This document shows, in pieces, positions 4,904-50,130 of a stretch of 64,000 nucleotides of DNA (positions within the stretch are counted from its first letter, which is position 1; each line of letters begins with the position of its first letter). Origin of the DNA: Candidatus Parcubacteria bacterium (GTDB lineage Bacteria > Patescibacteriota > Saccharimonadia > UBA4664 > JBIOIQ01). A program made the position numbers and the translations under genes. The notes below the pieces were generated by a model that worked only from the letters and a program-made list of their open reading frames with translations, did no database searches and had not been told where the DNA came from. The stretch lies in contig OY970378.1 of NCBI GenBank assembly GCA_963718875.1, positions 324,396 to 388,395 on the forward strand, in the 5' to 3' direction.

Positions 4904-4980
4904 ACCAAAGCAATTTTCATTTTTAACAATTATCCAATTTTCAATTAATGAACGTGATTTCCTTGGCTAGGGGCAATTAG

Positions 4981-5002
4981 CTCTCCGTCGGCTGACGGAT
5001 GG
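4981..5002 (+). repeat. family D module core CTCTCCGTCGGCTGACGGATGG (partial copy between the two tRNA-Val genes)
   Basis: Core palindrome CCGTCAGCTGACGG-like. Confidence 0.55.
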
Positions 5003-5044
5003 TTAGAGCGGTCGCCGCGGCGACAGGTCACAGTAGTGACGTTT

Positions 5045-6764: not shown

Positions 6765-7262
6765 ATGGCAGTCCGTACAACTGGTAAAGCGCTCATCGAT
6801 TTTTGGCAAAGCCCGTTCGTGGAGAGCAGGGTTTCAGTCAGAATGGCCGCCGATATGGCGACCGCCTGCCGGGAAGTACTTAGTGCCAGGTCAGATGGAA
6901 ATACAGTTGACCTGCGTACATGTCCAGTAAGTGAGCTCACCGGCAGTTTTATACAAGCGCATCCTGATCGCCCAAAGGCGACTCTGGCTGCATACAAGAG
7001 CCGCTTTAAAAAAGCGGTTCGTTTGTATTTGAGCTATCTGGAAAATCCTAGTGACTGGCCGGTGGACCAGCTTGAGTCAAAGGTCAAAAGTCAAAAGTCG
7101 AAGGTTGCCATGCAGGATTATCAGTTCCCGCTGAGGAGGGATTTTTTGCTTGCAGTAGGCTTGCCGTTGGACATTACTAAGGAAGAGGCGAGGCGGTTGG
7201 CGGCTTTTATAGAAAGTCTGGCATTTACGGACAATGAGCCCTTCGACAGGCTCAGGGAGTAA
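6765..7262 (+). CDS. hypothetical protein
   Basis: 165-aa ORF with AAGGAA Shine-Dalgarno. No recognisable motif. Confidence 0.5.
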   Translation: MAVRTTGKALIDFWQSPFVESRVSVRMAADMATACREVLSARSDGNTVDLRTCPVSELTGSFIQAHPDRPKATLAAYKSRFKKAVRLYLSYLENPSDWPVDQLESKVKSQKSKVAMQDYQFPLRRDFLLAVGLPLDITKEEARRLAAFIESLAFTDNEPFDRLRE

Positions 7263-7524
7263 CGGCTCATTTGTTAAGAGACCCCCGGCACAAGGCCGGG
7301 GCAGGCCTGAAACGAGTTCAGGTTGACAAAAAATTTGTGTTATAATGAGTTCAAGTTAATAGAGCTCAGGCAAGCCTAACCATCTTGCTAGCTCCGGTCC
7401 GGGTGACGTACATCTGGGAGAAAGTGATCCGCCTGTTGGTGCGATAATCCGAGTGGAACCATCCCGCCAGAGGCGGGGTCTCGGAGCCGGCCTTTGGCGG
7501 TTTTTCGTTTTAAGGAGAGAGTTG

Positions 7525-8106
7525 GTGAAACCAAAGAAAGGCCAGGCTTTAAACCCAAGTGAGCCTAACAAAATATCAAGACCTGGTCTTGGGACGTTCT
7601 GGATAGTTCTTGGTATAGGGCTTTTAATTGCTTGGTTGATGATTCCCGTGGGTGGACTTGTCGTTCAGGCTTGGACTTGTCGTAATGCACCTGGGGTTTT
7701 AGTAGAAGGCGTCGCTTACCCCGACGTTTATAATAACTGTGGCTCGTATAGTGGTGATGTATATAGAGGGTTGTTTTTCTTAAGTTTTATTGCAACTCCG
7801 ATCATACCTGTGGGTTCATTTTTGGTATGGCGTGGGTTGAAGCGACGACAAAAAAATAGTCATGGTGTATCGTTACCAATTAAAGGTTTGTCGATAGTCC
7901 CGATGGTTTACGCAGTTGGATTGATCTTTTTGGCATTAATGTCGGCATTGGCTACCTTGATATATAGTGGTGAGAGGGTTAATGGCGGGCTAAATAGTAG
8001 CTTTTGGTTTTTCTTAATCGTAACGCTCTTTTGGTCTGGAATGGCTTGGATTACCTATAAAAGCGCAAGGAAATCACAGCAACTTGTTAAGGTCAGTAAG
8101 GGGTAA
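7525..8106 (+). CDS. hypothetical integral membrane protein
   Basis: GTG start with TAAGGAGAG Shine-Dalgarno. Four predicted TM helices. The N-terminal 20 aa are near-identical to the thrS N-terminus. Confidence 0.55.
   Translation: MKPKKGQALNPSEPNKISRPGLGTFWIVLGIGLLIAWLMIPVGGLVVQAWTCRNAPGVLVEGVAYPDVYNNCGSYSGDVYRGLFFLSFIATPIIPVGSFLVWRGLKRRQKNSHGVSLPIKGLSIVPMVYAVGLIFLALMSALATLIYSGERVNGGLNSSFWFFLIVTLFWSGMAWITYKSARKSQQLVKVSKG
7543..7594 (+). repeat. 52-nt segment near-identical to the thrS 5' coding end (copy in the upstream membrane-protein gene)
   Basis: CCAGGCTTTAAACCCAAGTGAGCCTAACAAAATATCAAGACCTGGTCTTGGG versus 8147-8198. About 45 of 52 nt identical. Both copies are in frame and encode LNP(S/G)EPNK(I/R)SRPGLG. 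Confidence 0.8.
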
Positions 8107-8117
8107 GGAGGAATGTC

Positions 8118-10133
8118 ATGAGCACACAAAACAATCAAGATAAAGACCAGGTTTTAAATCCGGGCGAGCCTAACAAAAGATCAAGACCTGGTCTTGGCGT
8201 TGAGGCAGATGAACTATACGCTATGCGGCACTCGCTAGCGCATATTATGGCTACAGCCGTAGAGGAGCTGTGGGCTGAGGCTAAGTTGGGCGTGGGACCG
8301 GTTATAGAAAACGGATTTTATTACGATGTGGATTTAGGCGAGACTAAGATATCGGAAGAAGACTTTACCAAAATTGAATCTAAAATGCAGGAAATTATTA
8401 AGGCTGACCAGCCTTTTGAGTGTTTCGAAATGCCGATTGATGAGGCTGTAGAGTGGGCCAAGGAAGCCAAGCAGCCGTATAAGCAAGAGTTGTTGAATGA
8501 CCTTAAGGAGCATGGCACTACGGTGATGAAGGATATTGATGCAAGTTCGCTAGGAGTAGAGTCTAGTTCTCGTCGTACCTCCTCAAACAATGAAGGTGAG
8601 AATCAAAATTCTGAGTCAGGTGAGGATGCTGGATCTGAGGCGTCGAAGGTTAGTGGTCAAATGTCAAATGTTACTCAGGTGTCGTTTTACCGTAACGGGC
8701 CATTTACTGACCTGTGTCGTGGTCCGCACGTGGAGTCGACCGGTAAAGTTGGGGCTTTTAAGCTGATGAAGGTGGCTGGTGCTTACTGGAGGGGGAAAGA
8801 GACCAATCCTCAAATGCAGCGGCTGTATGGGGTGGCATTTGCCACTAAAGAAGAGCTGAAGAGTTATCTTGAGACCATGGAAGAGGCCAAGAAACGGGAT
8901 CACCGTAAGCTTGGGCAGGAGTTGGATCTCTTTACGTTTTCGGACTTAGTCGGTCCAGGATTACCTCTTTATACTCCTAGGGGTACTGTGCTTATAGAAG
9001 AACTAAAAAAAGTATTGCGCGAAATTAGTAATCGTTATGATATGTTGCTTGTTTCGATTCCTCATATTGCAAAAATTGAGCTCTACCAGACATCTGGCCA
9101 TGCCGATAAGTTTTCTGATGAGCTATTTCATGTTAAGAGTCATTATGATCAACCTTTCGTGATGAAGCCAGTAAACTGCCCACACCATACTCAAATTTAT
9201 GCTGCGCGGCCGCGTAGTTACCGTGAGCTACCATTGCGCTATATCGAGCAAACAATGCAATATCGCGACGAGAAACCTGGTCAAATAGGCGGTTTGCAAC
9301 GAACAAGGGGCTTTACTGTAGATGATGGTCATACGTTCTGTCGTGTTGATCAGATTGAACAGGAAGCCTCTATGTCGGTGGAGGTGATCAAGGATTTCTA
9401 TACTAACTTAGGCCTCTGGGGTGAGCATTGGGTGTCGTTATCCGTTCGAGAGCCTGGTGCCCAAGACAAGTATATTGGCCTTTCTGAAGACTGGGATAAG
9501 GCTGAATCCATGCTTGACGAAGTCTCTACCAAATATGGGTTGAACGCAAAACGGATGGAAGGTGAAGCTGCCATTTATGGTCCAAAGCTCGACTTTATGT
9601 TCAAGGATGCGCTGGGACGAGAGACTCAACTGGCTACGGTACAGCTGGATTTTGCCATGCCCAAACGTTTTGGACTAACTTATACTGACGAAAATAGCGA
9701 GTTAATACCACCCGTAATGATTCACAGAGCCATTCTAGGCTCGTTTGAACGCTTCATAATGCTTTTAATTGAACATTTTGCGGGCAAGTTCCCGGTTTGG
9801 CTGGCGCCAGAGCAAATAAGAGTAGCGACGGTAAACGACTCCAAAAAATTGGAAGATTATGCCAGAGTGCTTGTGAAGGACATGAAGGAAGCTGGGTTGC
9901 GTGCGGAGCTTGATCTGTCGAATGAGAGTGTGGGTAAGAAGATCAGAGCGGCAGAACTTTACAAGGTTCCTTACACGCTTGTGGTGGGAGAAAAAGAGCT
10001 GGAAAGTGGCAAAGTTACGCCTAGAGTGCGCAAGGATTTGGCCACAAGTGAGCCTTCTGAGTTGGAAGTAGATAAGTTTATTCAGGTCGTGGCGGGTGAA
10101 GCAAAGTCACGGGCGAGTAAAGCGAGCTTATAA
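8118..10133 (+). CDS. thrS: threonine--tRNA ligase
   Basis: Editing-domain motif HSLAHIM, class II catalytic core and C-terminal anticodon-binding domain. Perfect TAAGGAGG Shine-Dalgarno. The TGS N1 domain is absent and there is a Ser/Glu-rich low-complexity insert. Confidence 0.9.
   Translation: MSTQNNQDKDQVLNPGEPNKRSRPGLGVEADELYAMRHSLAHIMATAVEELWAEAKLGVGPVIENGFYYDVDLGETKISEEDFTKIESKMQEIIKADQPFECFEMPIDEAVEWAKEAKQPYKQELLNDLKEHGTTVMKDIDASSLGVESSSRRTSSNNEGENQNSESGEDAGSEASKVSGQMSNVTQVSFYRNGPFTDLCRGPHVESTGKVGAFKLMKVAGAYWRGKETNPQMQRLYGVAFATKEELKSYLETMEEAKKRDHRKLGQELDLFTFSDLVGPGLPLYTPRGTVLIEELKKVLREISNRYDMLLVSIPHIAKIELYQTSGHADKFSDELFHVKSHYDQPFVMKPVNCPHHTQIYAARPRSYRELPLRYIEQTMQYRDEKPGQIGGLQRTRGFTVDDGHTFCRVDQIEQEASMSVEVIKDFYTNLGLWGEHWVSLSVREPGAQDKYIGLSEDWDKAESMLDEVSTKYGLNAKRMEGEAAIYGPKLDFMFKDALGRETQLATVQLDFAMPKRFGLTYTDENSELIPPVMIHRAILGSFERFIMLLIEHFAGKFPVWLAPEQIRVATVNDSKKLEDYARVLVKDMKEAGLRAELDLSNESVGKKIRAAELYKVPYTLVVGEKELESGKVTPRVRKDLATSEPSELEVDKFIQVVAGEAKSRASKASL
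8147..8198 (+). repeat. 52-nt segment, thrS copy
   Basis: CCAGGTTTTAAATCCGGGCGAGCCTAACAAAAGATCAAGACCTGGTCTTGGC. Confidence 0.8.
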
Positions 10134-10181: not shown

Positions 10182-10847
10182 ATGTCTCGACTCATTCGAC
10201 AGGCTCAGAGTTTACAACAAGCTCGACATGACAATATAAAGCCGGTCATTGCGGTTGATATTGATGAAGTGTTGGTTCCTTTTGCTGAAGGGTTCATAGG
10301 GTTTTACAACCAGGTTAATGGTACAGCTTATGAGCTGGCTACTACACAAGTGTATCGGCTTGAAGAAATCACCGGAGATACGAAAGAATATATGTTAGAG
10401 ATGGTGCATCAGTATCATGCGCTGGTAGAGCGTCGAGCTGACCTGCCTATCGAAGGTGCCGTAGATGCCATTAATCGGTTACTTATGTACTACGAGGTTG
10501 ATATTGTAACTTCAAGGCGTTATGTAGAGCTTGAATTTACACACAAGTGGCTTAGACAGAATTTTCCGAAAGTATTTCGAAAGGTGCATTTTATTCGCGG
10601 ACCTGATGATGGAAATGTAATGACAAAATCAGAGATATGCCAGCAAATAGGGGCAAAAGTACTGATTGAGGATCAGTTAACGTATGCGCTCGATGCTGCT
10701 AAATCCGGCATTAGGGTGTTGCTCTTTGGAAGCTACCCTTGGAACCAGATTGATGTTTTGCCCCACAACGTGAAGCGAGTTTATAATTGGGATGAAGTAC
10801 TGCAAGATTTAATTGGTTTAAAAAATTCTGAAACGACCGTCGGCTGA
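10182..10847 (+). CDS. HAD-superfamily 5'(3')-deoxyribonucleotidase-like protein (NT5C family)
   Basis: N-terminal DxDxV motif (IAVDIDEVL) and overall NT5C-like length and pattern. Confidence 0.55.
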   Translation: MSRLIRQAQSLQQARHDNIKPVIAVDIDEVLVPFAEGFIGFYNQVNGTAYELATTQVYRLEEITGDTKEYMLEMVHQYHALVERRADLPIEGAVDAINRLLMYYEVDIVTSRRYVELEFTHKWLRQNFPKVFRKVHFIRGPDDGNVMTKSEICQQIGAKVLIEDQLTYALDAAKSGIRVLLFGSYPWNQIDVLPHNVKRVYNWDEVLQDLIGLKNSETTVG

Positions 10848-10876
10848 CGGTTCAGGATGACAGCTAGGAGTATGTA

Positions 10877-13546: not shown

Positions 13547-15010
13547 ATGTTTCTGATGATCATTTGGTTAGCAAAGCTGGCTGGAACGTTGAGTCGGCTT
13601 TTTGGTAAAGGCGGCGGATCGGCCTTGCCGGGTTTGTTGGCTGAACAAAGCGACGATAATATTTTGACTCAACTCGGTTCGCGATTAAAATATGGCTCAA
13701 TCGTTATTACCGGTACAAATGGTAAAACAACAACCACCAAAATGGTTTGTGAAATTCTCGAATCTGTAGGCTACAAAGTTATAACTAACCAATCGGGCTC
13801 AAATTTGAGTCGCGGAATTGTTTCGACTTTAGTTGAAAAAATCAGCTTGACCGGTAATTTTAGTGCTGAACTTGGTGTTTTTGAAGTGGACGAAGCTAGT
13901 ATGCCGGCAGTGTGTGCTGCCCTCAAGCCTAAAAGCGTGATGGTTTTAAACTTGTTTCGGGATCAGCTTGATCGCTATGGCGAGTTAGATCAGACGGCCG
14001 CCATGATAGGTAAAGCGATTTCGCCACTTGAGACCGAGCTGTTTTTGAATGCCGACGATCCGTTGGTGGCTAGTCTGGCCAGATACTGCAAACCTCAAGA
14101 CCAGGTCTTAAGTCCAGATGTTTCAAGTTCTCGTGTCAAGGCCTGGTCTTTGAACCCTCGTATCCATTATTTTGGGGTTGAAGCCGCAAAAACCCTAAAA
14201 CTCGATCACGATCTAGCGGCAGATTCCGATCATTGTCCGTTTGATGGAGCGGCTTTGCACTACAAGAATAATTTTTTTGGACATATTGGGCACTATGTCT
14301 GCCCGAACGGTGATTTTGAGCGGCCGAAAACCGAAACAAGCTTAGTGGAATATAAAAACGGCCAGCCTTTTAAGCTTAAAAGTGAAAATGGCGGTGAAGC
14401 TAAGCTTTATTTACCGCTGCCAGGCCTCTATAACGCCTATAACGCTCTGGCGGCGGTAAGCCTCTGTGAAACGCTGGGTATTACAGTTGAAAGGGCTGCA
14501 AAGGCTTTAGAACGCGTTACAGCGGCCTTTGGCAGGGTAGAGAGACTGGAAATTGAAGGCAGGACTGTTTACTTGCTTTTAATTAAAAATCCGACTGGCT
14601 TTAACCAAGTGATTCAGACCTTTTTGACCAGTAATAAAGCTCATAGCATTATGGTAGCCATAAACGACAATTTTGCGGATGGACGAGACGTGAGTTGGTT
14701 GTGGGATGTGGCAATTGAAGAGTTGCGAGTTCAACACCCGTCGTCAAACGTTAAAGGCCCTAAACCGGCAGTTGGCAGTGTTGGACACAATATTGTAGTG
14801 AGTGGCGATCGAGCGCTTGATATGGGTTTACGCTTTAAGTATGCGGGGCAGGCAGTGGCGATCGAGACTAATTTAGAAGCGGCTTTTAATCAAGCTGTTA
14901 GATCTGCCTCTCCTGGTGAAACGGTGTATGTACTCCCGACTTATACGGCCATGTTGGAATTACGCGAACGTGTTAGAACACTAGGCCTTGTTAAAGGCTA
15001 CTGGTCATGA
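13547..15010 (+). CDS. murT: lipid II isoglutaminyl synthase, Mur-ligase-like subunit MurT
   Basis: Mur ligase P-loop GTNGKTTT, central Cys-rich ribbon (CPFDG...HYVCPNG) and C-terminal DUF1727-like region. Confidence 0.8.
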   Translation: MFLMIIWLAKLAGTLSRLFGKGGGSALPGLLAEQSDDNILTQLGSRLKYGSIVITGTNGKTTTTKMVCEILESVGYKVITNQSGSNLSRGIVSTLVEKISLTGNFSAELGVFEVDEASMPAVCAALKPKSVMVLNLFRDQLDRYGELDQTAAMIGKAISPLETELFLNADDPLVASLARYCKPQDQVLSPDVSSSRVKAWSLNPRIHYFGVEAAKTLKLDHDLAADSDHCPFDGAALHYKNNFFGHIGHYVCPNGDFERPKTETSLVEYKNGQPFKLKSENGGEAKLYLPLPGLYNAYNALAAVSLCETLGITVERAAKALERVTAAFGRVERLEIEGRTVYLLLIKNPTGFNQVIQTFLTSNKAHSIMVAINDNFADGRDVSWLWDVAIEELRVQHPSSNVKGPKPAVGSVGHNIVVSGDRALDMGLRFKYAGQAVAIETNLEAAFNQAVRSASPGETVYVLPTYTAMLELRERVRTLGLVKGYWS

Positions 15011-15080
15011 CAATGTATTCCACGCTTTGCATATTACTTCGTCAAGCTCTCCAGTCCGCGTTCGACGTAGGCTTGCTACG

Positions 15081-15129
15081 CCTCTCCGTCAGCCGACGGA
15101 TGCGGACTTCGGTTTTTTCTTGTACTGCA
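15081..15129 (+). repeat. family D module, full copy between murT and gatD
   Basis: CCTCTCCGTCAGCCGACGGATGCGGACTTCGGTTTTTTCTTGTACTGCA. Confidence 0.6.
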
Positions 15130-15164
15130 TCGAGCTATGAAATGCTTTTACGGGGGTTAGTTAA

Positions 15165-15896
15165 ATGTTAAATGTCAAAGGTCAATCGTTAACAATCGTA
15201 CACTTGTACGCAAATGAGATGAACATTTATGGCGACAGAGGGAATGTACTGACTTTGTGTCAGCGGTTGGCTTGGCGGGGGATTGAGGCGAATGTTGTAG
15301 AGGTAGGAGTGGGGCAAAAATATGATTTTACTGAGGCCGATATTGTGTTTGCTGGTGGAGGTCAAGATAGGGGTCAGTTGGCTGTGGGAGCTGATTTACT
15401 GAAGCGCTCTACTAATCTGCATTTGGCTGCCCAAGCCGGAGTAGTTATGTTAACTGTTTGCGGTACTTATCAGTTGTTTGGGCGCTTTTTTGATACGCAC
15501 GAAGGTCATAAAATTCCTGGTATAGGTTTGTTTGGTGCTCAAACGGTGGCTAGCAAAACTAGGATGATTGGAAATGTGGTGCTCGAAAGCGCCTGGGGCA
15601 GGTTGGTGGGTTTTGAAAACCATAGCGGCCAAACTATACTAGATGCTGCTCAGCCGGCACTAGGGAAGGTGCTAAAAGGTTTCGGCAACAACGAAACTAG
15701 TGGCGCTGAAGGTGCTGTTGTTCACAATGTTTATGGCACTTACTTACATGGGCCGTTGCTGCCTAAAAACCCGGCTTTTGCCGATCATTTGCTACTGACT
15801 GCTTTGCGGCGCAAGCATAACATTAGCGAGTTGCAGCCACTTGATGATCAGCTTGAATTATCAGCTGCGGCTATTGCGGCAAAACGCCCGCAATAA
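15165..15896 (+). CDS. gatD: lipid II isoglutaminyl synthase glutaminase subunit GatD (CobB/CobQ-like GATase)
   Basis: Close pattern match to S. aureus GatD (MNIYGDRGN ... TVCGTYQLFG ... GFENHSG ... YGTYLHGPLLPKNP). Confidence 0.8.
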   Translation: MLNVKGQSLTIVHLYANEMNIYGDRGNVLTLCQRLAWRGIEANVVEVGVGQKYDFTEADIVFAGGGQDRGQLAVGADLLKRSTNLHLAAQAGVVMLTVCGTYQLFGRFFDTHEGHKIPGIGLFGAQTVASKTRMIGNVVLESAWGRLVGFENHSGQTILDAAQPALGKVLKGFGNNETSGAEGAVVHNVYGTYLHGPLLPKNPAFADHLLLTALRRKHNISELQPLDDQLELSAAAIAAKRPQ

Positions 15897-15937: not shown

Positions 15938-15992
15938 TAAGTCAGACTTCAAATCGGATTGCTTTGGCTATCCAAGATTAAAGTCTGACTTA
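15938..15992. repeat. family B hairpin element (TAAGTCAGACTTCAAATCGGATTGCTTTGGCTATCCAAGATTAAAGTCTGACTTA)
   Basis: 11-bp inverted arms AAGTCAGACTT/AAGTCTGACTT. Confidence 0.6.
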
Positions 15993-16028
15993 TATTTACG
16001 CATTAGACACCAGCATTGCTACTTATTG

Positions 16029-16128: not shown

Positions 16129-16184
16129 CAAAGTCAGGCTTCAAATCCAATTGCTTGATCATCCAAGATTAAAGTCTGACTTAC
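16129..16184. repeat. family B hairpin element, second copy in the same intergenic region
   Basis: CAAAGTCAGGCTTCAAATCCAATTGCTTGATCATCCAAGATTAAAGTCTGACTTAC. Confidence 0.6.
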
Positions 16185-16307
16185 ATTAACGCTATTGAAT
16201 CCGATAGGCAGACGTATTAAGAACTAAAACAAAAAACCGCCCGATGTTATCAAGCGGCTCTTTGCTTATTTTGTTTTAACCAAAAATGCGGAACAAAAAG
16301 AATGAAT

Positions 16308-19096: not shown

Positions 19097-19154
19097 AAAA
19101 GTCGGACTTCAAATCTGGTTTCTAGGACGATGAAGATTAAAGTCCGACTTTAAT
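19097..19154. repeat. family B hairpin element (AAAAGTCGGACTTCAAATCTGG ... GATTAAAGTCCGACTTTAAT)
   Basis: Compensatory change (CGGAC/GTCCG) preserves pairing. Confidence 0.6.
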
Positions 19155-20569: not shown

Positions 20570-20980
20570 GTTTAGTTTTTTCGTTGGTGCGATTGATTAG
20601 GGTTTAGATCTTAGAATTTAGTGCTTATAATATAGGTAGCTCTGCGACATTGGTGAATCTTGACCAAATTTTCCTGTTAACATTCTATCGGGTGTCTCGC
20701 TTTAGCGAGACGAGCCTAAGATTGTTCCAGCCCGTGGGCTGCGGACTGAAGGTACCCACCTGTCTTAAGGCAGGGAAGAATGGGTTAAGTTACCGTGGAG
20801 CGGAGTTATGTGATTATCGCTTTGAGGGACCTTAACGGTCTCTTTTAAGTTATAATCACAAGGACCCAGGGTGCAAGAGAGAAGGATGCAAATAAATCTC
20901 TAATCTCAAATCTACACCCTAAGTATTGTAATTTGTTTCTTGGGGCTTGTTTCTTCCTGGTAAAAAAGAAAATTGGAAAT

Positions 20981-21001
20981 TGCTCCGTTAGCTGACGGAA
21001 T
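20981..21001 (+). repeat. family D module core, partial copy 16 nt upstream of tRNA-Pro
   Basis: TGCTCCGTTAGCTGACGGAAT. Confidence 0.5.
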
Positions 21002-21016
21002 TGAAAATTGATGCCG

Positions 21017-21133: not shown

Positions 21134-21152
21134 CCAGAGGTTTAACCTCTAG
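21134..21152. repeat. cassette-boundary palindrome copy 1 (CCAGAGGTTTAACCTCTAG)
   Basis: 19-bp near-perfect palindrome 44 bp downstream of tRNA-Pro. Confidence 0.8.
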
Positions 21153-21257
21153 CTCTGATAATACTTTCAAAATGCCGTCCTGAAACTTCAATTTATTGAT
21201 TGAAAACTCGGGATGGTACCGGAGACCCTGCGCGTGCACGGTCTCCGGTGGTTGTTG

Positions 21258-22143: not shown

Positions 22144-22162
22144 CTAGAGGTTAAACCTCTGG
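22144..22162. repeat. cassette-boundary palindrome copy 2 (CTAGAGGTTAAACCTCTGG, reverse complement of copy 1)
   Basis: Exact reverse complement of copy 1. Confidence 0.8.
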
Positions 22163-22176
22163 CTATACCGACGTAG

Positions 22177-23079: not shown

Positions 23080-23847
23080 ATGTCTATTTCTGTAGACAGC
23101 ACGATTAAAACTAAAACGGCTTTGGTTACGGGTGTATCCCGAGGAATAGGGAAAGCTATTTGCGAACAGTTGAGCGTTGAGGGGTATCGAGTTATTGGTA
23201 CGTACAACCAGGGGCTGGAAGAGTCGCAAACGCTGCAGCGAGAGTTGGGTGAGGTGGAGTTTTTTCAGGTCGATTTTGGCAATCGAGCTGAAACCACCAC
23301 CTTTTTAGAGGTTTTGAAGGGGCGAAAGTTTGAGGCCATTGTTAATAACGCCGGGACTATCGACTTTCAGCAGTTTAGTAAGTATGAAATGAAGGGTTGG
23401 GATAATACACTTGAGGTCAATTTGGGTGTGCCTATGTTGCTGGTGGCGGGCTTGCAGCATAATATTTGTGATGGTGGTTCGGTAGTTAATATTGCCAGCA
23501 CAGATGGATCGATAGGCTCGTTTGCAAGCATTGCTTATTCAGCCAGCAAGTCGGCCTTAATGAATGTCACCAAGAGTCTGGCTAATAATCTGGGCTCTCG
23601 GGGTATACGAGTAAATGCTGTGGCACCTGGGTGGATTAATACCGATATGGATACAGAAGTAGTGGGGGAGTCAGAAAAGCTGACACCGCTCGGAAGAAAT
23701 GGTACACCGGGGGAAGTTGCGGATTTGGTGAGTTTTTTATTGTCGGATAAGGCTGCTTTCATTACTGGAGCTACAGTTGTCATCGATGGCGGATACACCT
23801 GCGTCGATTACGTTATGAAGCTGGAAAACGAGTTGGAACAGGGCTAG
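23080..23847 (+). CDS. SDR-family oxidoreductase (3-oxoacyl-ACP reductase-like)
   Basis: TGVSRGIGKA Rossmann motif, NNAG, and YSASKSA (YxxxK) motif. Stop codon TAG lies inside palindrome copy 3. Confidence 0.75.
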   Translation: MSISVDSTIKTKTALVTGVSRGIGKAICEQLSVEGYRVIGTYNQGLEESQTLQRELGEVEFFQVDFGNRAETTTFLEVLKGRKFEAIVNNAGTIDFQQFSKYEMKGWDNTLEVNLGVPMLLVAGLQHNICDGGSVVNIASTDGSIGSFASIAYSASKSALMNVTKSLANNLGSRGIRVNAVAPGWINTDMDTEVVGESEKLTPLGRNGTPGEVADLVSFLLSDKAAFITGATVVIDGGYTCVDYVMKLENELEQG

Positions 23848-23862
23848 AGGTTAAACCTCTAG
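23844..23862. repeat. cassette-boundary palindrome copy 3 (CTAGAGGTTAAACCTCTAG, perfect)
   Basis: Perfect 19-bp palindrome. Confidence 0.8.
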
Positions 23863-23958
23863 CTGATTTTAAGACGAACCCGCCCCGTCAAGCCCATCGT
23901 TGTATATTCACATTAAACGGTTTTTTTAAATAAGACTACACTCGGCTATAATTGACTT

Positions 23959-24771: not shown

Positions 24772-24790
24772 CCAGAGGTTTAACCTCTGG
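24772..24790. repeat. cassette-boundary palindrome copy 4 (CCAGAGGTTTAACCTCTGG, perfect)
   Basis: Perfect 19-bp palindrome 24 bp upstream of rnhA. Confidence 0.8.
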
Positions 24791-24813
24791 AAAACAATTG
24801 TTATGATAAGATC

Positions 24814-25323: not shown

Positions 25324-25720
25324 GTTGCCAGACTATCTGTAAGCCGGATTTTGTATCTCGCCAGAAGGCGGGACGATGACCATCTATCTAGTCCCATAAT
25401 TGCTTATAGGATCAAGCGGGTTCAAACATTGGGGAGACGAGCAGCCTCTTATCCCAACTCCTTGCAGCAGACGGGGTTTACCTCCCTTTAATGTCACCAT
25501 TATTGGCTGAGCGCTTTTACCGCTCTCGTTTCACCCTTACCTCCACTTACGGAGGCGGTCTCGTTTCTGTGGCACTTTCCCTAGGCTTTAGTGTAAATGG
25601 ATTCTCGAGAGCTCCCATTTACACTTACTCCCGGTTGCCGTTAGCAACCGTCATTGCTCTATGCTGTCCGGACTTTCCTCTCCACGTTAATGGAGCGGCC
25701 ATCCAATAGTCTAGCGAGGT
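25324..25720 (-). ncRNA. rnpB: RNase P RNA, bacterial type A
   Basis: Minus strand shows GAGGAAAGTCCGGAC (P4 5' strand), GGGAAAGTGCCACAGAAA, AGGGTGAAACGAGAGCGGTAAAAGCGC and ACAAAATCCGGCTTACAGATAGTCTGGC (P4 3' strand plus P1). P1 pairs GCTAGACTAT with ATAGTCTGGC. Ends are approximate to within 5 nt. Confidence 0.75.
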
Positions 25721-27356: not shown

Positions 27357-27426
27357 TCATGAGTTTTGACTCGAGAGTGGTGAGGGGGGTGCTTTTAGAG
27401 CGGAATTTTGAATCTGGATTTTCTAA

Positions 27427-27534
27427 TTGTCATCCTGAACTCCGTTTTTGTCATCCCGGACCGGAAGGCTTTAGCCGCTCCGGATCCGGGAACCACCAAC
27501 TGACGTGGATCCTGAAACTAGTTCAGGATGACAA
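27427..27534. repeat. family A composite element: outer inverted repeat TTGTCATCCTGAAC/GTTCAGGATGACAA enclosing inner GTCATCCCGGACCGGAAGGC ... CCGGATCCGGG hairpin
   Basis: Nested inverted repeats between the sugar transferase and GT4 genes. Confidence 0.6.
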
Positions 27535-27615
27535 TTCAAAAAAAATAGTTAAATGGAGTAGGTTTTCCTCGCTCTTCATTCATAATTCATCAGTCGCAGC
27601 ACTTGAGGCTTGTAG

Positions 27616-31468: not shown

Positions 31469-31526
31469 GTATTTGGATAATCTCTTGCAAGGAGTGGATC
31501 ACCGGATTGTGGTCCGGGGCAGGTTC

Positions 31527-31552
31527 TGAAACTAGTTCAGGATGACAATCTA
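31527..31552. repeat. family A partial copy (CTGAAACTAGTTCAGGATGACAATC), identical to the 3' arm region of 27513-27534
   Basis: 24/25 nt identity to 27511-27535. Confidence 0.55.
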
Positions 31553-32952: not shown

Positions 32953-33016
32953 AGATCAAAGTTTGCAGACTTAAAATCAAATTTCTTGGGTGTCCGAGAT
33001 CAAAGTTTGACTTACA
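32953..33016. repeat. family B degenerate copy upstream of infC
   Basis: GATCAAAGTTTGCAGACTTAAAATCAAA ... GAGATCAAAGTTTGACTTACAT. Confidence 0.4.
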
Positions 33017-33048
33017 TAACCCGAAATCTGAAGTAGTGATTAGAGTGT

Positions 33049-36879: not shown

Positions 36880-36907
36880 AGGTCAAAGGTCAAAGGTCAA
36901 AGGTCAG
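36880..36907. repeat. tandem heptamer AGGTCAA x4 in the divergent promoter region between the YifB-like gene and a TrmB regulator
   Basis: AGGTCAAAGGTCAAAGGTCAAAGGTCAG. Confidence 0.6.
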
Positions 36908-42011: not shown

Positions 42012-42284
42012 CTAGAATGCGCCTGAATCTGATGCAGGGGTAACATTGTCATCGTCATCGTCCCCTTCGCTGTCATCGTCATCGTCATCAGAATCGTTGT
42101 CATCTGCTGCATCAATGTCTTCGAGTTCATCGTCTTCTGGCTCTGCCGTAACGTCATCATCGTTAGCAGGAGGAGTTCCGCCCCCTAATTCCTCACCAAA
42201 GACGTTTTCTGGCCAATCCAAAGGGGTGTTATATGTTTCGTGGTCTTTCATTTGCCAATCTGTTCGGTCACCGTATATATCCAT
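42012..42284 (-). CDS. small highly acidic protein with C-terminal poly-Asp tract
   Basis: GGAGGT Shine-Dalgarno 5 nt before the ATG at 42284. C-terminal DDDDDDSEGDDDDD. Confidence 0.4.
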   Translation of the reverse strand: MDIYGDRTDWQMKDHETYNTPLDWPENVFGEELGGGTPPANDDDVTAEPEDDELEDIDAADDNDSDDDDDDSEGDDDDDNVTPASDSGAF

Positions 42285-42386
42285 CTCGTACCTCCACGTT
42301 TTAGTTATCGTAACGAACTGCACACCCCAATACATTACGTTGTCGATCCTCCAGCCCGCGCTCGTCGTAGGCAATTACTACGACTT

Positions 42387-42430
42387 TTCCGTCAGCTGAC
42401 GGATACGGGCTTCGGCTCTCCTGTACTGCA
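42387..42430 (+). repeat. family D module, full copy
   Basis: TTCCGTCAGCTGACGGATACGGGCTTCGGCTCTCCTGTACTGCA. Confidence 0.6.
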
Positions 42431-42580
42431 TTAAAGTGTGCAGTTCGTTGTAGTTACTATCTTATGTGTGTGTGCGTAGCTTTACTATTGAAAGATTATC
42501 CAAAAATGTGTTCGGTTTTGAGGCGAACAAAGTGCTGTATATGCTGATTACTTTTCTAATCGTTATCTGTATCTGCTATT

Positions 42581-42639
42581 GATAAAAACATTGTTGATGC
42601 CCCGACCAAGCGCAACAAAATGCGCAAGGTCGGGGCATC
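42581..42639 (-). terminator. intrinsic terminator downstream of the Flp pilin gene
   Basis: 12-bp perfect stem GATGCCCCGACC/GGTCGGGGCATC (42596-42607 and 42628-42639) followed on the minus strand by a T-rich tract. Confidence 0.55.
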
Positions 42640-42656
42640 TGGGTGCGGATGCCGTG

Positions 42657-42830
42657 CTACTGAGTGGCTGTAGTCGCGGTGGTGGGTGGGGTGTTGGAGC
42701 TGGTGTCTTCGCCCATGGTGGTCAGGGCCACGATGCAGACCACGGCGATGAGGGCCATGAGTAGGGCGTACTCGATGAGAGCCGAACCCGCCTCGGTTGT
42801 GCTCCTGCGAATTGCTTTCATGTGCTGCAT
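42657..42830 (-). CDS. Flp/Fap-family type IVb pilin (Tad pilus major subunit), high-GC island
   Basis: MKAIRRSTTEAGSALIEYALLMALIAVVCIVAL matches the Flp motif. GGGAGG Shine-Dalgarno. GC about 60% by eye. Confidence 0.6.
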   Translation of the reverse strand: MQHMKAIRRSTTEAGSALIEYALLMALIAVVCIVALTTMGEDTSSNTPPTTATTATQ

Positions 42831-42902
42831 GAAACCTCCCTGTAGTTGGAACATATATGGTAATGGAAACTGATGCTCCTGCTGTCAAACGGGGCAAGGC
42901 CT

Positions 42903-43217
42903 CTAGTGTATGTGTCTTTCGGCCGCCCGTCCGAGCTCGTCACCAACGCGGCCGTCTCGTTCGCCCACAGACTGCGCGAAAGCTTGGCCTCTAACCTTGT
43001 CGAGCTCCCAACCGGCTACAAATACTGCCACCAGAAGTGGCAAAGTCAGAGTCTTGCACACAAGGGTGACCCATCCTGGGAGTTGTTGCTCAAAGCCGTA
43101 CCAGGTCATGGCCACAACAAAAGCCACGGCTGCTAGAGTCAGAAAGCGTGTCCATGCCGCGCCGTTCTTGGCGGGCCGAAGACGACTCAGCTCTGTGAGA
43201 TCTGCAAAATCATCCAT
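42903..43217 (-). CDS. hypothetical membrane protein in the high-GC Flp island (strand call tentative)
   Basis: Two TM helices. Co-oriented with the Flp gene. The overlapping plus-strand ORF 42873-43136 was rejected. Confidence 0.3.
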   Translation of the reverse strand: MDDFADLTELSRLRPAKNGAAWTRFLTLAAVAFVVAMTWYGFEQQLPGWVTLVCKTLTLPLLVAVFVAGWELDKVRGQAFAQSVGERDGRVGDELGRAAERHIH

Positions 43218-43324
43218 TTCCCGCTCCTAGCGTCGACGTTTCTGCCTGCGGATGCAGGTTTAAAATATAATAATATAATTGCTAGCACTTGTAAAATATT
43301 CTTGATTAACTACCCTCAAAAATG

Positions 43325-43342: not shown

Positions 43343-43721
43343 GGGGCTGATATTAGCTTCGACGTGAGGACATTTACAAACTACTCGGCAGGTCGCAGGC
43401 AGGCGTTACTATCCAAACAATAAACAAATCACAACTTTGTTTCACGGGTGAAGTCGCTCTTTGCAGTTCCTTCATTCGCACCTGCTTTCGCCTAAACACG
43501 AAAGCCATCGTCTCCCTGATGCCCGGTAGGGGACAGACGGTGCCAATTATCGGGACGCTTCCCGCCATTTGCCTCATTGGTGGGACTAAGACTTGAGGTT
43601 GCTGCGTTTGATTATCTTGTCTGTTCTAAGATCAGCGCTTAAGACAATTGAATAGGATAAGCCTGTAGAAGAGTAGTGCGTAACTTCGCGGACCGGGGTG
43701 CAATTCCCCGCAGCTCCACCA
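43343..43721 (+). ncRNA. ssrA: transfer-messenger RNA (tmRNA, SsrA)
   Basis: 5' GGGGCTGATATTAGCTTCGACGTGAGG and 3' GGACCGGGGTGCAATTCCCCGCAGCTCCACCA (T-arm plus acceptor plus CCA). The 5' and 3' ends pair as a tRNA-like domain. I did not resolve the tag reading frame. Confidence 0.8.
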
Positions 43722-46370: not shown

Positions 46371-46544
46371 AAAACTACATACATAGCGTATTACTGCGCC
46401 AAGCCTGCGTTCCGCACTCAACGTAGCTTTAACTACGTATTGCTTACGGTACTGGGCTTTCCTCGTACTCCATAGATGTATGTGACTTTTAAGTAGGGTA
46501 GGTGTCGATTCTTTCAGTCCGCATTCGCCTTAGGCATAACTACG

Positions 46545-46600
46545 GCTCTCCGTTAGCTGACGGATACGGGCTTCATTTCTCCTTCTGCTGCACCACAGTA
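46545..46600 (+). repeat. family D module, full copy
   Basis: GCTCTCCGTTAGCTGACGGATACGGGCTTCATTTCTCCTTCTGCTGCA. Confidence 0.6.
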
Positions 46601-46695: not shown

Positions 46696-47247
46696 TTACA
46701 TCCAGCCGTGTTTTTGCATGGTTTGAAGTAGTTTTTGCCGGTAAGGCTCCTCGCGCCAATAGCCTGGATAATCGATCAATGCATCGTTTATAACATTTAG
46801 GCCAGCCTCCTTTAAGGGTCCAGAAGCAATGTTGTAGGGGTTGGATTTGATCAAAATAATTTTAGTGTTCGGTCCTGATAAAGCTTCAATTTTTGTTATA
46901 AGTTGAGGTAGAATGTCCTTAATTTTTTGTTTGCGCACTGCTGGAGTCGTGCCGTGAGGAAGTGATTCTTCTAAGGATTCTATCATGTAACATCCGTCAC
47001 TCTGAAAGCGCTTGAGCCAATCATGTTTTTGCCGTGCTAAGTCGGTTTCGCCTATGTTCAATACTTCGGGGTACAGGGCTTTTACGGTATTAGTAAAGAG
47101 TCGGTCGCCCTCACCAACATCATTAAGGTAAAAATGACGTGTACTGATTGTACCCGCTGGCGGGGGAGCTGACTCAGCTACAAACAACCACTTAATATCG
47201 GCTGGTTTGTAGGTTTGACGTATTAATTCGTATTGTTGATCGGCCAC
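46696..47247 (-). CDS. hypothetical protein
   Basis: 183-aa ORF with no recognised motif. Confidence 0.4.
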   Translation of the reverse strand: MADQQYELIRQTYKPADIKWLFVAESAPPPAGTISTRHFYLNDVGEGDRLFTNTVKALYPEVLNIGETDLARQKHDWLKRFQSDGCYMIESLEESLPHGTTPAVRKQKIKDILPQLITKIEALSGPNTKIILIKSNPYNIASGPLKEAGLNVINDALIDYPGYWREEPYRQKLLQTMQKHGWM

Positions 47248-48960: not shown

Positions 48961-49044
48961 TTGTAAATAAAACAACATTAATTATAATTTTTGGGTTTTG
49001 TGTATCTAGAGTTGAAAAAATTATCAATGTGGTATATTTGCATT

Positions 49045-50130
49045 ATGAACCGCAGTTCTAATAAAAAAACTTTATATGTGATTCTATGCTGCGTAATCGT
49101 TTTACTTGTCGCTGGGTGTGTGTATACCTTGAATAAGGTAAGTAACGTTAAGGATTTGGCAGAAGCAGTTCCACTAAAAACGACTAGTTTTAAATATGCA
49201 TGTAAAGGTGATCCCCAGAGCCTACCTTGCTTACAAAAGCAGTATCAAAAGCTAACAAGCGAGCAAGGTGTTGCAAGGGCTTTTGAGCAGCTTAAGAAGG
49301 CGTACGATAAAGACAGTAGTGTAAAAGCTGGGTGTCATCAGCTAGTTCATGTCATAGGGCGAGTGCAGGCGGAAAAATCGGCTTCGATTTCAGAGGTGTT
49401 TAGTCAGGGCGACCAATTTTGTTGGGCGGGTTACTTTCATGGGGCGATGGAAACGTTTATAGCTAAAATTGGCGCAGAAAATGTTGTAGGTAAACTTCCA
49501 ACTGTTTGTGCCCAAATAAAAGCTGAAAAACCGTATTCGTTTTATCATTACAACTGCGTTCATGGTATGGGGCATGGGGTTTTTTCGATTGAAGATAATG
49601 ATTTAATGAAAACTCTATCTTTGTGCGACCGGGCGGGCGACAGTTGGGAGCAAAAATCTTGCCAGGGTGGTGCTTTTATGCAAAACGTCATGGCCGCGGA
49701 AGATCCCAATGATCACACTGATTTTTTGAAGGGTGATCAGCCGATGTATCCCTGTACGGCAGTATTAGAGCAGTATAAAGATCAATGTTATTTGATGCAA
49801 ACGTCATATGCTTTACGTCTGGCTCGCCAAAACTTTGCCACTGTTTTTGCACAGTGCGCTGGTATAGAAGAAAAATACCGCGATACTTGCTATCAGAGCT
49901 TGGGAAGGGATGCTTCTGGTAACAGCGTTAGTAATGTAGATCAGACCAAAGCTACTTGTATGCTAGGAAGCACTCAAAATGCCCGTGCTAACTGCATCAT
50001 TGGAGCGGTCAAAGATTTTGTATCGTATTTTCATAGCGATAAGCAAGCAACCCAGTTGTGCCAAGTGCTTGATGCCAGCCTTTCAACCGTCTGTGAAGCA
50101 ACCAAAAAGTCATACTACGAGACATTCTAG
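49045..50130 (+). CDS. Cys-rich hypothetical lipoprotein
   Basis: Lipobox-like LVAGC after a basic N-region. More than 20 Cys residues. Confidence 0.4.
   Translation: MNRSSNKKTLYVILCCVIVLLVAGCVYTLNKVSNVKDLAEAVPLKTTSFKYACKGDPQSLPCLQKQYQKLTSEQGVARAFEQLKKAYDKDSSVKAGCHQLVHVIGRVQAEKSASISEVFSQGDQFCWAGYFHGAMETFIAKIGAENVVGKLPTVCAQIKAEKPYSFYHYNCVHGMGHGVFSIEDNDLMKTLSLCDRAGDSWEQKSCQGGAFMQNVMAAEDPNDHTDFLKGDQPMYPCTAVLEQYKDQCYLMQTSYALRLARQNFATVFAQCAGIEEKYRDTCYQSLGRDASGNSVSNVDQTKATCMLGSTQNARANCIIGAVKDFVSYFHSDKQATQLCQVLDASLSTVCEATKKSYYETF

Follow-up and report, generated by a model that had tools for sequence, protein, structure and literature searches.

BOX elements of pneumococci, ERIC sequences of enterobacteria and Correia/NEMIS elements of neisseriae are non-coding structured repeats of 100-200 nt that lie between genes, are co-transcribed with them and can alter mRNA processing or stability; in BOX, the modules boxA, boxB and boxC may each be present or absent. 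Integron attC sites also depend on folding: they are active when a single strand folds up, the terminal part of the structure being variable, and their R'' (RYYYAAC)/R' (GTTRRRY) and L''/L' boxes pair across the element. Here we analyzed a 64-kb stretch of a Candidatus Parcubacteria bacterium genome (contig OY970378.1; hereafter, the window), in which an initial annotation had described a recurring structured module built around a palindrome. We propose, at a probability of roughly 0.55, that this element is an interspersed repeat, non-coding, built on hairpins and specific to its lineage, of the kind represented by repetitive extragenic palindromic sequences (REPs) and structured miniature inverted-repeat transposable elements (MITEs), and not a dedicated RNA gene.

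REPs occur intergenically between co-directional or convergent genes, near the stop codon of the upstream gene, and their ends may supply stop codons; their stems contain G·T pairs, their sub-families differ by compensatory stem changes, and their self-complementary loops are variable (PMC3733652). Some families are embedded in longer palindromes, some are shared by distant taxa, and the entire CGTC class is without a dedicated transposase (PMC3733652). The hallmark of a REP is an unpaired GTAG or CGTC at one end, 0-2 nt from the foot of the hairpin (PMC6006769, PMC3733652). REP units mostly stand as inverted doublets (head-to-head or tail-to-tail dimers, REPINs), and a RAYT (Y1 HUH) gene in the same genome is flanked by them. 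For the insertion sequences IS608 and ISDra2, the lagging-strand template is the strand acted upon (PMC6006769).

The palindrome CCGTCAGCTGACGG, with at most one mismatch, occurs at six sites in the window against 0.01 expected, and none of 100 shuffled sequences reached six. All five sites listed in the initial annotation were recovered, while a sixth, at 10837, had been missed. Counting a degenerate scaffold, there are seven sites in total: four have a longer scaffold (three intact, one a degenerate tandem copy) and three consist of the palindrome hairpin alone. The intact copies, numbered 1-3, share a conserved block of ~90 nt (15041-15130, 42342-42431 and 46504-46593) with a mean identity of 85% in their alignment, and ahead of it lies a left arm of ~30 nt (AAYGWAYTSCACRC...ATTAC) that is conserved more weakly. 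The scaffold thus measures ~90 nt, or ~140-150 nt including the arms. A structured module had been correctly recognized at the outset; its length, given as 50-70 nt, falls short of the full copies. We built a covariance model, R1, from the three intact copies and searched both strands of the window. Copies 1, 2 and 3 scored 103, 97.7 and 103.5 bits, respectively, and a fourth scaffold copy (46398-46473) scored 33.2 bits (E ~1.6e-7; nhmmer E 0.035), with no further significant match on either strand. Strand was assigned from asymmetric flanks, which made five sites orientable; the site at 10837 is without diagnostic flanks. All five orientable sites lie on the plus strand, as had been noted for the five copies first listed; this is the G-rich strand.

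For each intact copy, folding gives a three-way junction whether the strand is taken as RNA or DNA. P1, the closing helix, pairs AGYCCG(C) with (G)CGGRCU; P2 is a hairpin in which (G)NCGTAG and CTACGN(C) enclose a loop of 5-7 nt; and P3, the apical hairpin, is the 16-nt palindrome TCCGTCAGCTGACGGA, read as TCCGTC-AGCT-GACGGA. Standard pairs fill 93% of the pair cells in the three-copy alignment, as compared to 23-45% when the partners are slid. The small CGTAG-N-CTACG hairpin of the initial annotation corresponds to P2 and is present in all scaffold copies. Its CTTCGG segment, described as loop-like and conserved, did not hold up: of the three copies, only 1 and 2 contain it, and in the fold it is not a loop but the end of the 3' strand of P1 plus four bases. 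Two pairs are altered on both sides, one in P1 (C-G, U-A or U·G) and one in P2 (U-A or C-G). This covariation is matched by 75 of 500 shuffles and is not significant; with three copies it is suggestive only. The conservation of the stems stands.

Within the P3 stem, substitution is limited to two C to T changes, one in copy 3 and the other at 20985, which affect the same arm. They keep a T·G pair on the plus strand and would leave C·A on the minus strand. Because the stem changes are compatible with G·T or G·U pairing on the plus strand only, the single-stranded form of the plus strand appears to matter more than a double-stranded dyad; the sequence fits a single-stranded form, DNA or RNA, without telling which. 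The four central bases of P3 are variable (AGCT, GGCT, AGCC), and in the predicted fold the unpaired flanks are pyrimidine-rich on both sides (CCTCCAG and CTCTCCTG).

Folded as DNA, the whole stretch of copy 2 forms one long hairpin (-32 kcal/mol, z -5.1) that ends in the three-way junction, and it is bounded by a perfect 14-nt inverted repeat, AACGAACTGCACAC (42311-42324) and GTGTGCAGTTCGTT (42437-42450). Outer pairing thus extends over a perfect 14 bp in copy 2; it is weak in copy 1 and missing from copy 3, and at the equivalent positions these two copies are similar at only 5-7 of 14 nt and pair poorly. We place no weight on a test of the outer stem by flank shuffling, in which the fixed TRCGG acted as a confounder. 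RNA-fold z-scores were -2.8 for copy 2, -0.9 for copy 1 and -0.8 for copy 3. Around the hairpin-only site at 4985, the stretch 4970-5044 has a DNA-fold z of -3.0 and includes two further small hairpins. The scaffold copies form a decay series: P1, P2 and P3 are perfect in copy 2, P2 of copy 1 contains a mismatch, copy 3 combines a mismatch with a wobble, and copy 4 is without P3. Ranging from intact to decayed, they resemble a population of inserted repeats (Table 1).

Table 1. Sites of the element, followed by other repeats and features of the window; P1, P2 and P3 are the helices of the predicted junction.
Feature	Coordinates	Strand	Palindrome position	Structure	Context
Copy 1, entire inserted spacer	15011-15164	+	15086	core 15041-15130; P1 AGTCCGC/GCGGACT; P2 ACGTAG..CTACGC; P3 TCCGTCAGCCGACGGA	between murT stop (15008-15010) and gatD start (15165)
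Copy 2, most intact	42311-42450	+	42389	core 42342-42431; P1 42353-42358/42406-42411; P2 42364-42370/42378-42384; P3 42388-42393/42398-42403	between two minus-strand open reading frames (ORFs)
Copy 3	46475-46593	+	46550	left arm from ~46475; core 46504-46593; T·G wobble in P3 (TCCGTTAGCTGACGGA); one mismatch in P2	between convergent FKBP gene (+) and ORF 46696-47247 (-)
Copy 4, degenerate	46371-46473	+		retains P2 (ACGTAG..CTACGT) and 3' end CTCGTACTCCAT; without P3 stem; ~60% identical	direct tandem upstream of copy 3; begins right after FKBP stop codon
Hairpin-only site	4980-5009	+	4985	GCTCT-CCGTCGGCTGACGG-ATGGTT-AGAGC; own outer stem GCTCT/AGAGC	between tRNA-Val(GAC) and tRNA-Val(CAC), 46 nt upstream of the latter
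Hairpin-only site	20983-20999	+	20985	CTCCGTTAGCTGACGGA; T·G wobble as in copy 3; no outer stem	16 nt upstream of tRNA-Pro(GGG)
Palindrome in loop of another repeat	10828-10862	not assignable	10837	CCGTCGGCTGACGG in loop of CTGAAAC..GTTCAGGATGACA	
MITE-like element, 110 nt	27426-27535			perfect 15-nt terminal inverted repeats ATTGTCATCCTGAAC / GTTCAGGATGACAAT	between sugar-transferase and GT1 genes
Solo right-end-like units	7307-7330; 31526-31549; 10828-10862			CTGAAAC-NN-GTTCAGGWTGACAA	
Second gene-end hairpin family	21134-21154; 22144-22164; 23844-23864; 24772-24792			C(T/C)AGAGGTT(T/A)AACCTCT(A/G)G	each at a gene 3' end
Direct-repeat family, 52 nt	15944-15995; 16135-16186; 19103-19154; 32966-33017			..CTTCAAATC..GATTAAAGTCTGACTTACAT	intergenic; two copies between gatD and convergent mechanosensitive-channel gene
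Tandem heptamers, GTCAAAG type	7076-7099; 36882-36905; 15160-15197				one run is the 5' end of gatD, directly after copy 1
Tandem heptamers, AAAATTG type	20960-21010				around the 20985 hairpin
Segment of 58% G+C (flanks 43-46%)	42600-43230			two small minus-strand ORFs, no Pfam match	between copy 2 and tmRNA gene
Paired 65-nt segments, 83% identical	7528-7592; 8133-8197				near 5' ends of adjacent plus-strand ORFs (unknown 217-aa ORF; threonyl-tRNA synthetase)
Hairpin-rich, apparently non-coding stretch	20680-20860			no Rfam match at gathering score	between M50 peptidase gene and tRNA-Pro
Class A RNase P RNA	25324-25714	-			
tmRNA	43343-43721				

Further support for insertion comes from relatives of the host. 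The named relatives of the window's MurT belong to Candidatus Saccharimonadia (Patescibacteria), and the next relatives are 73% identical. Pfam scans of the ~75 non-overlapping ORFs of the window identified murT and gatD around copy 1, in agreement with the gene names first assigned. In two relatives (L004 and L005, MurT 73% identical), the murT TGA overlaps the gatD ATG as ATGA, leaving no spacer. The window has kept this ATGA at 15007-15010, but the next 154 nt are the element, and a new gatD ATG at 15165 stands behind a GGGGG of its own. The element accounts in this way for the odd 154-nt gap that splits a normally overlapping gene pair. A second case involves copies 4 and 3. Another relative (L127) has a syntenic block of FKBP, a 363-aa protein, trehalase, T2SSE and subtilase, in which only 57 nt separate FKBP from the homologue of window ORF 48991-50130; here the window is 2.6 kb longer, and the additional DNA begins with copies 4 and 3. 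Both the element and the palindrome are absent from the 18 kb compared in the three relatives, where ~1.7 sites would be expected at the density of the window. The orthologous sites in the relatives' sequences are empty, a statement about these loci and not about whole genomes.

Copy 1 is also traversed by an ORF of 54 codons (15007-15171), which runs from the ancestral gatD ATG to a stop 4 nt past the new one and could preserve the translational coupling of murT and gatD. We considered this ORF as a sign of selection and set it aside, since 12% of shuffles are equally open, which is not significant.

All seven sites are intergenic or on a stop codon, in co-directional (five) or convergent (two) gene contexts and never in a divergent one, and for copies 1 and 4 the upstream gene's stop codon marks the start. 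The copies are spaced 4-27 kb apart among housekeeping genes. The two partial copies first described as lying directly 5' of tRNA genes do so, at the distances given in Table 1. The neighbours of copy 2 encode an acidic protein of 90 aa and a hydrophobic one of 54 aa, and because both are on the minus strand, neither reads copy 2 in the sense orientation.

The palindrome is also nested. At 10837, the arrangement CTGAAACGA[CCGTCGGCTGACG]GTTCAGGATGACA places it in the loop of a different repeat, and this composite unit provides the TGA stop of an NT5C-family gene (10182-10847). Unfilled CTGAAAC..GTTCAGGATGACA units are found at 7307, 27512 and 31526, and a 110-nt element (27426-27535) has this unit as its right end. 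Within 64 kb, P3 occurs in four different contexts, and one scaffold copy is without it.

These observations lead us to favour an inserted repeat: the orthologous sites are empty, a degenerate copy stands in tandem, the palindrome is nested, and scaffolds occur with and without it. The other small intercistronic repeats of the window, including the 110-nt element, support the same interpretation. Copies have been inserted into intergenic DNA, beside stop codons or within pre-existing palindromes, and have then decayed, with P3 behaving as a portable module that may also stand alone or atop the hairpin of another repeat in the same genome. The window has a G+C content of 45% and a GC skew above zero in every 4-kb step, so that on the usual reading its plus strand is the leading-strand sequence and hence the lagging-strand template. 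All orientable copies lie on this G-rich strand, copy 2 against local transcription, and the stem changes allow wobble pairing on this strand alone; together these features fit a spread by single-stranded DNA of the lagging-strand template. By analogy with IS200/IS605 elements and with REPs moved by HUH/Y1 enzymes, spread may proceed through the folded single strand. Co-transcription of a copy would give the RNA a stable fold, at its 3' end or in an intercistronic region, and mRNA stability, processing or translational coupling might then be altered as a side effect, as has been proposed for REPs.

Several points weigh against this interpretation. Among the ~75 ORFs of the 64 kb there is no transposase, recombinase, integrase, HUH/Y1, TnpA, TnpB or RAYT, and the copies show neither a clear target-site duplication nor terminal inverted repeats in common. 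The relatives are distant (55-73% protein identity), and the insertions may be old and since adopted by the host. There are only four scaffold copies. The strand evidence is weak, coming from a small sample with one replichore visible; as ~63% of the ORFs are on the plus strand, five sites would all fall there with a probability of 0.63^5, or ~0.10. The two compensatory pairs and the conserved junction could equally mean an RNA function selected at each locus. Furthermore, the GTAG or CGTC tag is missing from the position it takes in REPs: P3 is flanked by CTC, TTT or TGC on the 5' side and by AT(A/G)CGG on the 3' side, and GTAG occurs only within the P2 stem. Nor are there inverted doublets, the window copies being single or, for copies 4 and 3, in direct tandem.

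We sought the element and its hairpin core in larger sequence collections as well. A 24-nt pattern fitted to the full copies, and too specific for this purpose, gave three hits in the GTDB species-representative genomes, a collection that does not include the source genome. We rejected all three as chance matches, as they lie in coding-like sequence of G+C-rich Actinobacteria and Acidobacteria and have no P1 or P2 context. Viral contigs yielded one match, which is the chance level, and plasmids contained neither the element nor the core. The palindrome had no match as a string in the literature, and we found no report of such repeats in Saccharibacteria.

A metagenome scan with the core TCCGTNRGCYGACGGATRCGG retrieved at least 120 loci. 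For ~10^12 bases we estimate 10-20 chance hits, and ~20 among the listed matches do look like chance, being in coding sequence with an unconstrained sixth base other than C. The other listed matches represent multi-copy families with unrelated flanks, on contigs of 28-64% G+C. Family A (~58% G+C) consists of inverted doublets, and some of its members have CCGCA-CAGCAGG-CGGCAG where others have CCGCA-core-CGGCAG. In family B (~33% G+C), which resembles an array of integron cassettes, unrelated small ORFs lie on one strand, a ParE/Phd pair among them, and behind each comes a ~100-nt imperfect palindrome that has the core TCCGTCAGCTGACGGA at its tip and AAC/GTT boxes on the outside; arrays of this type lie at L096 (3800-7745) and also at L093, L103, L038 and L114. 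Family C (~58% G+C) has the core inside another repeat, with scaffolds both containing and lacking it at L030 and L078. Family D (37-44% G+C) is without P2 and has CCTCCAGCC, the core and TACGG in common with the window element; its CTAC is found 5' of the hairpin, whereas that of a REP would be 3' on this strand. At one locus (L102), three family D scaffolds are capped by the core, GCTAAAGC or GCTCTTTGAGC as their apical hairpin. Core-bearing and core-less scaffolds thus coexist in three metagenome families, as they do in the window, where copy 4 compares with copy 3 and the unfilled units at 7307, 27512 and 31526 with 10837. Many single hairpins were found besides, with outer stems that vary in sequence and stay complementary, and at low-G+C loci the core is often 6-45 nt past the stop codon of a co-directional ORF.

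With model R1, core-bearing metagenome loci matched in the core only and never in the full window scaffold. Co-occurrence of the core with the motif GTCATCCTGA(A/G)C was weak (6 observed, 2.4 expected), and among proteins encoded next to the 120 loci only ABC ATPases recur, which is uninformative. Rfam 15 gave nothing relevant in 16 + 8 of the loci with the core. Sharing of the core appears to exceed chance, because a match to 17 fixed and 3 half-fixed bases in at least four independent multi-copy families of hairpins would be very unlikely. One could tentatively suppose that the 16-21-nt hairpin TCCGTCAGCTGACGGA(TRCGG) is itself a portable unit that comes to cap unrelated hairpin repeats in widely differing bacteria, although we regard this as improbable. 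If true, it would imply either a micro-element with hairpin loops as its target or wide conservation of a protein that recognizes the hairpin; to our knowledge, neither has been described.

As an alternative to an inserted repeat, the element could be a cis-acting RNA of the host, in which the junction or P3 is transcribed with the upstream gene or tRNA precursor and selected at each locus because it protects 3' ends, is processed by an RNase or decouples neighbouring cistrons. We consider this unlikely, though several observations are in its favour. Five of the six palindrome sites lie in sense orientation downstream of a plus-strand gene or tRNA, the stem changes are G·U-compatible on that strand only, two pairs have compensatory changes, and the RNA-fold z of copy 2 is -2.8. 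The position of the low-G+C metagenome cores shortly past stop codons agrees with such a role, and REPs are thought to act in this way (PMC3733652). However, copy 2 lies between two minus-strand genes, P3 is lost in copy 4, copies 1 and 3 fold no better than shuffles, and the covariation is not significant. The element is also missing at the orthologous sites of relatives, in which murT and gatD are translationally coupled without it. Finally, neither a U-tract or other shared terminator nor an Rfam match accompanies the copies. Of the RNA-level function first suggested, what survives is the conservation of the hairpins, not a specific RNA function.

The initial annotation had named termination signals and small RNAs among the candidate functions, and searches for such signals bear on both. 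A hairpin with a U-tract is not shared by the copies: none was called at copies 1 and 3, copy 2 was flagged only for P2 plus a TTTT inside the element, and a T6 run after P1 is found in copy 1 only. Likewise, no sigma-70-like promoter is common to the copies. Rfam 15 had no match for the element at the gathering score in the window, nor at E<=10 in 42250-42550; a ribozyme or riboswitch was dropped as a candidate for this reason. A family of trans-acting small RNA genes, with weak promoters of their own in the left arm and C/U-rich flanks (CCUCCAG, CUCUCCUG) pairing with Shine-Dalgarno sequences, is very unlikely in our view. Hexamers resembling a -10 box with A2 and T6 (CATATT, TACATT, TAGGGT) do precede the conserved GTCGA by 4-6 nt in copies 1-3, and the junction flanks are pyrimidine-rich and predicted to be unpaired, as this explanation would have it. 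Against it, the scan called a promoter for copy 1 only, with a -35 taken from the murT stop region, and the -35 region is not conserved; there is no shared terminator, copy 1 lies within an operon, and copy 4 is degenerate.

Least probable of all is that the 16-bp dyad TCCGTCAGCTGACGGA serves as the duplex binding site of a dimeric regulator or of a nucleoid or partition-type protein and is merely carried by the repeats: the palindrome is perfect over 16 bp in copy 2, stands alone upstream of two tRNA genes and has a 16-21-nt core conserved on many otherwise unrelated metagenome scaffolds, but the outer flanks, in the window as in the metagenomes, are variable yet complementary, a pairing that a duplex site does not need, both stem substitutions preserve wobble pairing on the same arm, the four central bases vary freely, and the sites are at gene 3' ends rather than promoters. 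A protein binding site, initially put on an equal footing with an RNA function, is disfavoured by the one-sided wobble changes and the complementary flanks.

An interspersed repeat, our preferred interpretation, would not be alone in this part of the genome (Table 1). The MITE-like element and its solo right-end-like units, a second gene-end hairpin family and a family of 52-nt direct repeats occur in the window, and tandem heptamers adjoin both copy 1 and the hairpin at 20985. A small, streamlined genome of the Saccharibacteria type thus still holds several hairpin-repeat families between its cistrons, and such repeats can change operon coupling and the fate of mRNAs. Next to copy 2, the G+C-rich segment may be acquired DNA; the 54-aa hydrophobic protein encoded there looks Flp-pilin-like. 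The hairpin-rich stretch ahead of tRNA-Pro may be an unannotated RNA, in addition to the RNase P RNA, the tmRNA and the three tRNAs of the window.

Among known systems, BOX, ERIC and Correia elements resemble the window element in that it is non-coding, stably folded and inserted between genes, with modules that are present or absent. They differ in having no sequence similarity to it, and the terminal inverted repeats of ERIC and Correia and the TA duplication of Correia are not common to the window copies. Classical MITEs differ as well: a strong outer inverted repeat is confined to copy 2, and no direct repeat abuts the ends. With the ends of IS200/IS605 elements and with palindrome-associated transposable elements (PATEs), the window copies have in common the lack of terminal inverted repeats and of a target duplication, and perhaps a dependence on hairpins of one strand. 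Their position on the G-rich strand may be a further likeness to IS200/IS605, to be read with the 63% of ORFs that share this strand and the single replichore. However, IS200/IS605 elements have a fixed tetra- or pentanucleotide target, and no common one is seen at the left boundaries here, which follow TGA in copies 1 and 4, TCGT in copy 2 and another copy in copy 3; ATTAC, found upstream in three of the four, is part of the conserved left arm. The copies show no evident division into left-end and right-end hairpins, and there is no TnpA or TnpB in the 64-kb window. The resemblance to integron attC sites belongs to metagenome family B, with its cassette-like array, its AAC/GTT boxes and the core at the tip (e.g., L096). 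An attC reading was rejected for the window copies, whose arms are unpaired and which have no AAC/GTT boxes, no array and no integrase domain in the window.

The likeness to REPs is broader, as each of the behaviours described in PMC3733652 is also seen in the window element. P3 with its outer stem forms a G+C-rich, extragenic, imperfect palindrome of 30-45 nt, and six palindromes and four scaffolds occur in 64 kb. Copy 2 lies inside a 14-bp palindrome, and the palindrome at 10837 lies inside the loop of another repeat. In form, by contrast, the window unit is a ~90-nt junction of three helices, where a REP is a single hairpin of 20-40 nt, and no RAYT gene is seen within the 64-kb window. The initial statement that the element is not a standard REP is accurate as to form, given the missing tag and inverted doublets; placement and behaviour are nonetheless those of REPs (PMC3733652). 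If the core does move between scaffolds, or is the target of a conserved hairpin-binding enzyme, it would offer a handle on REP-like spread without a known transposase, the same question that the CGTC class of REPs poses. One feature is unusual, namely the sharing of the core across very different metagenome repeat families. The window element, though not a REP in the strict sense, is a new form of a known kind of bacterial repeat.

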